Source of the DNA: an archaeon
GTDB taxonomy: Archaea > Asgardarchaeota > Thorarchaeia > Thorarchaeales > Thorarchaeaceae
Assembly (NCBI GenBank): GCA_024276825.1
Contig: JAJRWI010000010.1
Span: 1 to 64,000, forward strand
DNA length: 64,000 bases
Direction: 5' to 3'
Positions 21,358 through 24,922 of this stretch are shown piece after piece (position 1 is the first letter of the stretch; each line of letters opens with the position of its first letter). The position numbers and the translations under genes are program-made. The notes below the pieces were generated by a model, which searched no databases, was not told the origin of the DNA, and saw only the letters and a program-made list of their open reading frames with translations.

Positions 21358-22059
21358 CTATTTCTTAAGAATGAGTACAGGATTCTCTAAAAATTGTCGA
21401 ACATTGTCTTGAACAACAAATCGCTTGTCGCCCACATCAACTTCAAGCAGTTTTCGTAGTTCGAACTTTCTCAAGTATCCAACTGCAACCTGTTTGGAGA
21501 TATTCAGGTCTTTGGTGAGGAGTTCAAGGCCATTTGGTTTTCCGCTGTGTTCAGCGAATTTTTGGAAGACAGAACTCCATTGCATCATTATCAGATAGAG
21601 TAGAGTACGAAGCATACTATCAACATTCTGCCCTGTTTCACCGGAGCATGGTATCATTGGCAATCCAGCAACAAAGCTCATGCTTTTTTGCAGTTCTTCT
21701 ACTGGGCGGGCAGATCCTATATCTTGTTTATTTGCAGCCACGACACAGGGCACACCAGGCAGAAAGAAGGGGACTTCTCTAAAGAACAATTTTGCTCTGG
21801 CATCAGATTCTGGATCGCTCGAGTCAACGACAAATATGAGACCGTCGGCCCCCTCACTCAGGATTTTTCGCATAGTCGTGAAACGCAGCAAGCCGGGGGT
21901 TCCGAACAGGAACACATTCATTCCATTAATGTTAGCAACTCCATGGTCCATAGCAATAGTAGTTCCATTCACTTCAACATTGATGCAATTGCCATTAGTA
22001 ATGTTATGAATTATAGTGCTCTTACCAGATTCAAAGGGGCCCGTAACAACTATCTTCAT
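21358..22059 (-). CDS. Small GTPase (ATP_bind_1/MglA-related) with C-terminal winged-helix-like domain
   Basis: GPFESGKST, TTIAMDHG, FGTPG, NKQD, CSG motifs. Confidence 0.85.
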   Translation of the reverse strand: MKIVVTGPFESGKSTIIHNITNGNCINVEVNGTTIAMDHGVANINGMNVFLFGTPGLLRFTTMRKILSEGADGLIFVVDSSDPESDARAKLFFREVPFFLPGVPCVVAANKQDIGSARPVEELQKSMSFVAGLPMIPCSGETGQNVDSMLRTLLYLIMMQWSSVFQKFAEHSGKPNGLELLTKDLNISKQVAVGYLRKFELRKLLEVDVGDKRFVVQDNVRQFLENPVLILKK

Positions 22060-22238
22060 TCAACACACCTGTCCCTATATCATGAACTGCTGCTCTCATA
22101 ACAGCAATAAGAGGTTAAAAGATATTCTTATGACATGTTAACTTGTGCATTGTCATTCATGTTTGGCGGAAATTAGTGATTAGCCATTTAAAAATAGGTC
22201 CAAATGACACATGAAAAATGAAATATTGTCGATTTGAG

Positions 22239-22318
22239 AGAGACCGGCTGCTTGCGGCAGCAATCCTCAATCCTCCGTCCACAGGGGTTTAGGAAGATAT
22301 CACGGGAATTCGGTCTCT
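22239..22318 (-). promoter_or_regulatory. Eukaryote-like SECIS element overlapping the selD 3' end
   Basis: G-UGAU AUCUUCC U AAA CCCCUGUGG AC GGAGGAU UGAG: RUGA/GA core, 7-bp helix II, apical AAA; closed by AAUU/GAUU and AGAGACCG/CGGUCUCU. Confidence 0.7.
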
Positions 22319-23346
22319 AGAATGATGACACCTTCTGCAAGCCGTGCATTTGGCTCGTCAGAGGGTCGGATGACTTTGCCAACTGTCCAGCATGGCAGAT
22401 CCTTGCTCTTGAGAAAATCCTTGAATGGTTCAACATGCTCAGGCTTAAGAAATACAAGCATGCCACCCGCTGTTTCCGCGCCATAGCCTTGAGTGAGTTT
22501 GTGACCAAAGAACTCAGCAAGCTGGGCAGTCCCGGATATTATGGGAAGGGTGTCGATTATCACATCAACCCCACTGAGAGCAGCAACATTACTGGCATGC
22601 CCCAGTATTCCAAACCCTGTCACATCGGTGGCCGCATGAACACCTACCGATCTCATTGCCTGAGCAACCTCTAGATTGCTGGTAGTCATTATTTTTACAG
22701 CAGTGTCGTGCATCCGACGAAGCTCTGTTTCGTTGAACCTCTCAAGAAGGGCTTCACGCTTATCATTCTGCAGGTCCCTGTAAGACCGCATAGCGGGCTG
22801 AATTCCGAGTGGCTTTGTGAGTAGAACAACATCTCCGACCCGTGCACCTTTAGAGTATATGATCTCAGACGGGTGGGCCATTCCAAGACAAACACCGCCA
22901 AAGACTGGAACGGGGTTCGTGATTGTCTGGCCACCTGTCACTCTAGATTTGAGGGACTCCATGAATGCACACATTCCCCTAAGAACCCCAGCAGGAATAT
23001 CCTCGGGAATGTTTCGCGGATAGGCCAGAAGAGCCTGCAGCGAGAGAATCTCTGTTGCTCCCATTGCAAACACGTCGTTTGTTGCATTACACGCTACTAT
23101 CTGACCCTGAATATAGGGGTCGTCATGAATCGGGGTGAAGACATCGATGTTCTCTACGATAGCCACATTGTCATTGATCTGATGCACTGAGGCATCATCA
23201 CCATATTCATCATGGCACACCAGATCGATTGGGATAAGGCCCGAGGCATGAAGGAGTCTGACAAGGTCTGCCTGCTTGACCTTGCAACTTCATCCATGGG
23301 TTTTGACCATTGCAGTCAGGCGAATGTCTTTCAACTCTGTGGTCAT
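22300..23346 (-). CDS. selD: Selenide, water dikinase (selenophosphate synthetase), selenoprotein with Sec19
   Basis: ATG 23346 preceded by GGAGGT; MTTELKDIRLTAMVKTHG-UGA-SCK in frame with GDDA, DVFTP, DVFAMG, TDVTGFGILGH, ETAGG; UGA at 23290-23292. Confidence 0.93.
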
Positions 23347-23476
23347 ACCTCCTTTTGCTTTCAGGACGATCTGTCCAATAGAATCAAAGTCGGTTGGCAA
23401 ATAAAGATACTGCGAACCACTTCACAAGCCTTAAAGCATTTTAGACCAACCATATCGTTAACTGGAGAGAAAGAAT

Positions 23477-24922
23477 ATGAAGATTGAGAGAATAGCTGAT
23501 GGCATCCATGAGATTGCTCAAAAAGAGCAGTCTTGTATGAGAGTTCCTGTTCGTATCTACGCCTCTAAGGTGTTGATTGACAAGATGAGACAAGATGCAA
23601 CATTTCAACAGGGTGTCAATGCAGCATGTCTCCCCGGCATTTACAAGTACAGCATAATATTACCTGATGGACATCAGGGCTATGGGTTTCCAATCGGTGG
23701 AGTAGCAGCCACGGATTATGAGAATGGTGTTATCTCACCGGGCGGTGTTGGTTATGACATTAATTGTGGAGTTCGAGTCTTAAAGACCAATCTTGATGAG
23801 AAGGATGTCAGACCGAAGTTGAGGGACCTGATTGAGCAACTGTTCATTGATGTGCCCACAGGCGTTGGTAGAAGCGGAAAGATCCAGCTTGGGGGAAAGA
23901 GCGGAGTTGATGATGTTCTTAGTGGTGGAGCAGAGTGGGCGGTTGAAAATGGTTATGGATGGGAGGAAGACCTAAAGCATCAAGAGGCTGGAGGAAGGAT
24001 TGAGTTTGCTGATCCTTCAGCCGTATCATCGCAGGCCAAGTCAAGAGGATTAAGGCAGGTTGGAACACTTGGGTCCGGCAATCATTTTCTTGAGATTCAG
24101 GTTGTGGATGAGATTTATGATGAGGCTGCTGCAAAAGTCATGGGAATCACCCATTCGGGACAGATAGCTATCATGATTCATAGTGGTTCACGTGGTCTTG
24201 GTCATCAGGTCTGCAGTGATTATATCAAGACCATGACTCAAGCCATGAGGAAATACAACATTCAGGTGCCGGACAGAGAGCTCTGTTGCGCTCCCACAAC
24301 CTCTCCTGAGGGACAAGCATACCTTGGAGCAATGAGCGCAGCTGCCAACTATGCCTTCGCAAACAGACAATCAATGATGCACTGGGCCAGAGAGGCCTTT
24401 GCAAAAGTGATGGGGTCAACTCCAGAAGATCTTGAGATGGACTTGATCTATGATGTTGCACATAATATGGGCAAGGTTGAAGAACATGACATTGATGGAA
24501 AGCAGGTGAAAGTGGTCGTTCACCGAAAGGGTGCAACCCGAGCATTTCCAAAAGGGCATCCAGAGGTGCCTGCAAAGTATCAGAGTATTGGACAACCTGT
24601 GATAATCCCTGGAACAATGGGAACCGCATCATACATTCTAATTGGAAATCAGAAGGCAATGAACCTCACCTTTGGATCGACTGCTCATGGCGCGGGTAGA
24701 TTTCTAAGCAGGAGCAAGGCAAAGAAGAAGTACTACGGGAAGGAAGTCCAGGCATCTCTTGCTAAGAGAGGAATCATTGTCAAGGCAACAAAGGGCATGG
24801 TGATTGCAGAGGAGGCCCCTGGAGCCTACAAGGATGTTGATGAAGTGGTCAGGGTTTCGGATTCTGTAGGAATAGCCACGAAGGCCGTCAGGCTAAGACC
24901 TATTGGTGTGATTAAGGGATAA
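23477..24922 (+). CDS. rtcB: RNA-splicing ligase RtcB
   Basis: PDGHQGYGFPIGG, VGYDINCG, GSGNHF, HSGSRG, HN, HRKGAT, HGAGR, EEAPGAYK. Confidence 0.97.
   Translation: MKIERIADGIHEIAQKEQSCMRVPVRIYASKVLIDKMRQDATFQQGVNAACLPGIYKYSIILPDGHQGYGFPIGGVAATDYENGVISPGGVGYDINCGVRVLKTNLDEKDVRPKLRDLIEQLFIDVPTGVGRSGKIQLGGKSGVDDVLSGGAEWAVENGYGWEEDLKHQEAGGRIEFADPSAVSSQAKSRGLRQVGTLGSGNHFLEIQVVDEIYDEAAAKVMGITHSGQIAIMIHSGSRGLGHQVCSDYIKTMTQAMRKYNIQVPDRELCCAPTTSPEGQAYLGAMSAAANYAFANRQSMMHWAREAFAKVMGSTPEDLEMDLIYDVAHNMGKVEEHDIDGKQVKVVVHRKGATRAFPKGHPEVPAKYQSIGQPVIIPGTMGTASYILIGNQKAMNLTFGSTAHGAGRFLSRSKAKKKYYGKEVQASLAKRGIIVKATKGMVIAEEAPGAYKDVDEVVRVSDSVGIATKAVRLRPIGVIKG

Follow-up and report, generated by a model that had tools for sequence, protein, structure and literature searches.

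The stop codon of Thorarchaeial selD lies in the kink-turn of a conserved three-armed RNA that is probably a eukaryote-like SECIS

Results

A three-armed RNA at the end of selD

We analysed a window of 64,000 nt (the whole stretch of DNA presented here), the minus strand of which carries selD, the gene for selenophosphate synthetase. The gene has an in-frame UGA at codon 19 as its selenocysteine (Sec) codon, and its last codons run into an 80-nt element that we read as a candidate SECIS. The Sec UGA lies 990 nt (330 codons) upstream of the UGA in the core of this element. Using a covariance model of the element (R1, described below), we found the two UGA codons to be 329–330 codons apart in 26 related loci, these being the R1 matches with a complete upstream frame. 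Among 16 full-length Thorarchaeial matches, SelD is 61–69% identical and each gene contains one in-frame TGA. The next gene downstream (21358–22059, minus) encodes a 233-aa small GTPase-like protein with the P-loop GPFESGKST and starts approximately 180 nt past the element. The features are as follows, with base-level assignments for the element.

22300–23346, minus: selD (selenophosphate synthetase) coding sequence, 348 codons; ATG 23346–23344, stop TGA 22302–22300
23290–23292, minus: Sec codon UGA, codon 19, in frame, context THG-U-SCK
22239–22318, minus: whole three-armed candidate SECIS, 80 nt; R1 match at exactly these coordinates, E = 9e-23, 88.9 bits
22318–22311 with 22246–22239, minus: lower helix as read in the sequence, AGAGACCG with CGGUCUCU
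22311–22317, minus: lower stem 5′ arm GAGACCG, covering the Glu-Thr codons and the base that follows them; partner 22240–22246
22240–22246, minus: lower stem 3′ arm CGGUCUC, identified by covariation in the MAFFT alignment
Between the lower stem 5′ arm and the kink-turn (K-turn) C-stem, minus: linker AAU
22305–22307, minus: K-turn C-stem 5′ strand UCC (Phe/Pro codons), pairing with GGA 22264–22266
22304–22302 then 22301–22300, minus: K-turn bulged strand C-G-U, then G-A; U-G-A is the stop codon
G22301·A22267 and A22300·G22268, minus: tandem G·A pairs
22264–22268, minus: K-turn non-bulged strand, G22268 A22267 and then directly the C-stem GGA; GAGGA nearly invariant
22292–22299, minus: helix II 5′ strand, U22299 (opposite U22269) and then AUCUUCC (22298–22292)
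22270–22276, minus: helix II 3′ strand GGAGGAU, pairing with AUCUUCC
22288–22291, minus: unpaired UAAA, corresponding to the [U/A][A/G]AA motif of Thorarchaeial selD (PMC11227280)
22279–22287, minus: ministem CC/GG with apical loop, a type II feature
22247–22261, minus: side hairpin (third arm) GCUGC-CGCAA-GCAGC, between C-stem and lower stem

An earlier note, made from the letters of this DNA, had drawn attention to the element, and the minus-strand letters it quoted for 22239–22318 are the exact sequence there. The elements of a K-turn are present, namely UCC, the bulge CGU, GA opposite GA, and GGA. Above the K-turn, helix II comprises 7 bp, including one G-U, and leads to a bulge of 6 nt (UAAA plus AC), the ministem and an apical loop of 5 nt. 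Below it, the lower stem and the 5-bp side hairpin close a three-way junction.

One part of the original fold, a helix between AAUU and GAUU at the base of the K-turn, was only partly upheld. Read as an alternative register, it is paired in 86% of cells overall. Its two outer pairs (A-U and A-U here) are kept in 72% of relatives and show some covariation, but its two inner pairs were rejected, as they compete for bases of the UCC/GGA stem, which is nearly invariant and 98.7% paired, with a single double change (C-G to U-A, in the relative L014). The lower stem of the K-turn is thus better read as UCC/GGA, which would give a textbook K-turn; a hybrid in which a bulged U separates the outer pairs from UCC/GGA agrees with both sets of counts.

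The structure covaries across Thorarchaeia

The earlier note had looked to covariation across Thorarchaeial selD 3′ ends as the check on its structure. Choosing selD ends by protein similarity only, we obtained 25 distinct Thorarchaeial sequences, all of which fold alike and end in ...I-E-T-E-F-P-TGA or a near variant. These ends were aligned with MAFFT, without fitting the alignment to the structure, and the five-helix structure was then scored. Standard pairs are formed in 88.3% of cells, and both sides have changed in 17 of the 26 pairs. The covariation score is 0.387, against a shuffle mean of 0.171; none of 500 shuffles reaches the observed value, and slid partners score 0.08–0.12. Covariation is strong, and RNAalifold, unaided, finds the lower stem and C-stem as well as helix II and the side hairpin.

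The helices of this alignment differ in how their conservation is expressed. The lower stem is paired in 100% of cells, with double changes in 3 of its 7 pairs, while helix II shows double changes in all 8 aligned pairs. The side hairpin is 95% paired, with double changes in four of five pairs; the third arm and the three-way junction it makes, as first proposed, are hence real and conserved. The ministem is the weakest helix (66.7% of cells paired, little covariation). Within the core, the 5′ GA is invariant and the 3′ GA is found in 24 of the 25 relatives, with AA in the remaining one (L017). The base before the core UGA is A or G in relatives, rarely C.

We built the covariance model R1 from the MAFFT alignment of selD ends. 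In the genome from which the window comes, R1 has one match, the minus-strand element itself. Among 87 species-level Thorarchaeia genomes, 67 were matched, once each, all with E ≤ 5e-15. Because the covariation exceeds that of the shuffles and R1 matches once per genome, these comparisons of sequence confirm the element as a genuine conserved structure, far beyond chance.

Single-sequence evidence and a search for a rival signal

Taken alone, without its relatives, the 80-mer provides no more than suggestive evidence. In RNAfold, the minimum free energy (MFE) and centroid structures both contain the lower helix, the side hairpin and helix II; at an MFE of −27.8 kcal/mol (z = −2.5), the sequence is equalled by 4 of 200 shuffles. 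A loose K-turn/SECIS descriptor gave 193 matches in the 2.9-Mb genome. When these were filtered for a gene end and an upstream in-frame TGA, selD alone was convincing. Matches on contigs C70 and C65 were dropped as chance, none of the three same-strand frames being open there.

An Rfam scan of 21900–23500 with E up to 10 returned no SECIS family, the eukaryotic SECIS models included, and gave chance-level miRNA, snoRNA and lncRNA matches. This lack of a match agrees with published work in which SECISearch3 failed on Asgard genes.

A better SECIS further downstream had been named as a finding that would overturn the assignment, but 22060–22238 holds nothing conserved or SECIS-like. Identity to relatives is 0.72–0.81 across the element and 0.61–0.71 in the preceding coding sequence, and it is 0.59–0.65 downstream of the element, where shuffled sequence gives 0.61. 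A pattern search of the whole selD 3′UTR for the methanogen-type GAA_A with a G/C-rich upper stem of 3–6 bp found none. The description of the element as eukaryotic or Loki-type, not methanogen-type, agrees with all of this: it combines a GA/GA core and a 7-bp helix II with an unpaired AAA and a ministem, and GAA_A is absent from the 3′UTR.

The core UGA is the selD stop codon

The core UGA (22302–22300) had also been identified as the termination codon of selD, with the 5′ arm of the element as coding sequence. Both assignments hold here, and the first extends to relatives: selD terminates in frame at the core UGA in 25 of 25 ends chosen by protein alone and in 29 of 29 R1 matches examined, which are partly the same genes. 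The element begins 16 nt before the stop, so that 19 of its 80 nt, stop included, are coding and specify Glu-Thr-Glu-Phe-Pro-stop.

This dual use has left a mark on the codons. In the 25 sequences, third-position entropy at the paired sites of the last five codons (GAG, ACC and UUC) is 0.63, 0.53 and 0.24 bits, compared with 1.22 and 1.16 bits at the unpaired sites of the same codons and a mean of 1.62 bits for codons −40 to −7. The synonymous changes GAG to GAA and ACC to ACU, as well as a Thr to Ala replacement (ACC to GCC), are compensated in the 3′ arm. The compensated synonymous changes prove selection on the RNA within the coding part, and the low entropy of the paired sites points the same way.

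The 3′ U-GA of the K-turn (22267–22269, minus) is itself an in-frame TGA, 11 codons past the stop; read-through of the stop here would end on the other strand of the same K-turn. We considered read-through of the stop as Sec and rejected it, since the frame to the next stop (11 codons on) is not conserved, owing to the variable length of helix II among relatives.

The element accompanies Sec-type selD

Genes of the Sec machinery are clustered on another contig (C4) of the same genome, outside the window.

C4:31213–31303, complement: tRNA-Sec
C4:32009–33133, minus: SepSecS, E = 8.6e-116
C4:33846–34676, minus: EFSec, above the curated cut-off

Across Thorarchaeia, the element tracks Sec-type selD. 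Two genera (g7 and g12) keep SepSecS but carry SelD solely as a long SelD-like fusion without Sec, and they have no R1 match. This form, seen in some Thorarchaeia, is an open frame of ~750–780 aa with no in-frame stop (loci L025, L026, L027, L030 and L031, in genomes G013, G008, G023, G014 and G010, respectively), and its N-terminal 270 residues are 36–37% identical to SelD; it may be a Cys-type or fused selenophosphate synthetase.

In a further genome (G007, 93% complete), we found no selD with this SelD query and no SepSecS with the Pfam query. A weak R1 match remains at G007:C9:7429–7509, minus (locus L114, G007:C9:6900–9000). Only ...RRIETEFL-TGA is left upstream of it, the AAA bulge is lost and the lower stem carries a mismatch. 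This looks like a recent loss of the Sec trait, and the relic, a single case, matches the decay expected of a SECIS no longer under selection.

Searching the same genome as the window for a second selenoprotein gene, by Pfam searches for FlpD/MvhD and NiFeSe hydrogenase families and by a pattern screen, we found none. None of the nine FlpD/MvhD-like or the eight NiFeSe hydrogenase family matches (loci within L041–L054) contains an in-frame stop. The genome may encode no selenoprotein, or hardly any, besides SelD. A generic screen of the genome for TGA-interrupted frames gave 620 candidates and was set aside as too noisy. On contig C71, at ~17278 on the plus strand, a single TGA joins same-frame open frames of 2,391 and 2,199 codons, which may represent either a single giant gene whose stop is recoded or erroneous or a pair of neighbouring genes.

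A second Asgard class keeps the fold with the stop outside it

We compared these ends with those of a second class of the same phylum, sampling 121 genomes, with 47 distinct selD ends among them. The three-armed layout is preserved. Every stop is UAA or UAG and stands before the element, with the lower stem right after it; a stop that is also the core UGA was not seen in any of the 47 ends. Reading of the sequences places the start of the core AUGA 12 nt past the first base of the stop; the automated tally had marked the first NTGA, which in many rows of this class is an earlier UGA just past the stop. In five further outgroup ends, the stop lies 0–12 nt before the core.

Many genomes of this second class (L084–L113) carry two tandem selD genes ~1.3 kb apart and 58–66% identical to each other, each with its own three-armed SECIS-like element starting right after UAA or UAG. 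Two rows, L091 and L107, have a quite different sequence after the stop.

Discussion

Relation to known signals

The element belongs to a kind already described, and both such signals and their overlap with stop codons have been reported before. Huang, Xiao and Zhang (2024, ISME J, PMC11227280) surveyed more than 400 Asgard genomes and, in the text of that paper available to us, describe the selD signals as mostly type II, those of Thorarchaeia having GUGA_GA cores, [U/A][A/G]AA bulges and G[A/U]G_C[U/A]C lower stems. Their model, according to the same text, has a GA_[G/A]A core, an upper stem of 7–15 bp with at most two mismatches, a bulge of 4–12 nt with unpaired adenines, a ministem of 2–8 bp and a loop of 2–6 nt. 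The element shows every structural and positional feature of this type II model: it shares GUGA_GA, a 7-bp upper stem, UAAA, the ministem and a GAG_CUC lower stem, and like the Asgard signals it stands at the very end of a Sec-containing selD. According to the available text, 30 nt upstream of gene ends were included because stop codons overlap the core motif, the overlap is assigned to Lokiarchaeia, and SBP2 is absent from all Asgard genomes. The structural model, as given there, takes in core, upper stem and apex only, and this portion of the paper neither mentions a side hairpin or three-way junction nor states that every Thorarchaeial selD ends on the core UGA.

In an earlier study (Mariotti et al. 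2016, Mol Biol Evol, PMC4989117), a eukaryote-like lokiSECIS was described, with a type II-like extra stem in SPS (SelD); the core and unpaired adenines are shared with the element studied here. That signal can overlap coding sequence, and in VhuU.1 the AUGA motif doubles as the stop codon, a UGA so near the signal being unable to be recoded. The overlap was thus reported there for one VhuU gene, not for SelD. Beyond the available text of these sources, our modest additions would be the overlap in every checked Thorarchaeial selD end and its absence in the other class, together with, on the evidence of the alignment, the frozen synonymous sites and the conserved third arm, along with the reading of the K-turn's lower stem as UCC/GGA.

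Compared with the eukaryotic type II SECIS (RF00031 SECIS_1, SEPHS2), the element shares the K-turn-like GA/GA quartet, the unpaired A-rich motif and the ministem, and by analogy it would likewise act at a distance on an upstream UGA. It differs in its shorter helix II, in GUGA instead of the usual AUGA and in the extra third arm, and whereas the eukaryotic SECIS lies wholly in the 3′UTR, the Thorarchaeial element reaches 19 nt into the coding sequence. The sequence also fits the consensus of the canonical archaeal K-turn (Kt-7 or box C/D, bound by L7Ae), with the same C-stem ending in C-G, 3-nt bulge, tandem sheared G·A/A·G pairs and non-canonical stem; here, kinking and binding by an L7Ae-family protein are at most predicted, and in contrast to the canonical case the ribosome decodes the bulged strand as Pro-stop. 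Like the methanogen SECIS (Methanococcales, Methanopyrus), the element is at the 3′ end of an archaeal selenoprotein mRNA, with EFSec as the presumed delivery factor, but the methanogen signal has a GAA_A bulge, which the Thorarchaeial selD 3′UTR lacks. The bacterial SECIS is a hairpin within the coding sequence, immediately 3′ of the Sec UGA, unlike an element 990 nt downstream.

Proposed function and alternatives

We consider it very probable that the three-armed RNA is a type II, eukaryote-like SECIS of Thorarchaeial selD mRNA whose overlap with the stop codon is frozen and tolerated. We infer this function from the position, conservation and likeness of the element. Most likely, the folded element would recruit EFSec with Sec-tRNASec, directly or through a K-turn-binding protein, and the UGA at codon 19, which lies 990 nt upstream, would then be decoded by the ribosome as selenocysteine. 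Given the geometry of the ribosomal mRNA channel, a ribosome with the stop UGA in its A site should already have opened the lower stem and C-stem, the K-turn and most of helix II. The stop UGA itself could therefore not be recoded, and the signal would have to refold after each termination. In the simplest history, the reading frame would have grown by a few codons, entering the signal and ending at the UGA within it, and this state would then have been inherited. The overlap would thus most likely be a frozen, tolerated arrangement, not a dedicated regulator.

The alternatives range from a functional overlap to no signal at all. Completing ribosomes might melt the SECIS and evict its partner, so that higher ribosome flux would mean less recoding at UGA19; under a shortage of Sec-tRNASec, few ribosomes would get past codon 19, the signal would stay folded and SelD homeostasis would result. 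Such an adaptive regulator would fit the presence of the overlap in every Thorarchaeial selD end checked (the 25 protein-picked ends and the 29 R1 matches, partly the same genes), its absence from the 47 ends of the other Asgard class and the unfolding that channel geometry would force at termination. However, invariance within one class can be plain inheritance, as these sequences are kin and not independent events, and the other class does without the overlap, its signal lying entirely in the UTR. We regard regulation of this kind as unlikely.

Far less probable still is that the fold serves selD in another capacity, as a K-turn/L7Ae-binding element controlling stability or translation or as a transcript-end structure, with the true recoding signal elsewhere. 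K-turns have many archaeal roles, the Rfam SECIS models have no match, and in the literature considered, as far as its text was available, no experiment ties Asgard structures of this type to Sec insertion. Against this, the 3′UTR holds no other conserved or SECIS-like element, and the element occurs once per genome, solely with Sec-type selD. It is also missing where SelD lacks Sec even though SepSecS is kept, and it decays where selD is lost. Moreover, the GA/GA core, unpaired AAA and ministem are a SECIS signature, and the same core occurs in other Asgard selenoprotein genes (PMC4989117, PMC11227280). A chance hairpin at a gene end could explain a single-sequence z of only −2.5 and the 193 descriptor matches, but not covariation above all 500 shuffles, nor R1 matches with E from 1e-15 to 1e-23 in 67 genomes, once each, and we give it no credence.

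Implications

The element bears on a wider question, as Asgard SECIS elements are the proposed link between the archaeal and eukaryotic modes of decoding UGA as selenocysteine, and selD alone among selenoprotein genes is common to eukaryotes and Asgard archaea. In Thorarchaeia, the last five codons of selD and its stop double as the 5′ half of the signal. A bolder proposal, to which we attach only a small likelihood, is that the class-wide overlap is functional, the SECIS being reset by finishing ribosomes, and that the third arm docks an Asgard factor replacing SBP2. If this were true, Sec recoding at codon 19 would be tuned to ribosome flux and selenium supply. The contrast between the two classes, with the stop as the core UGA in one and before the signal in the other, makes both a minimal-distance rule and the unfolding of the SECIS by the ribosome testable, and the three-way junction with its conserved third arm offers a concrete place to seek the missing SECIS-binding protein.
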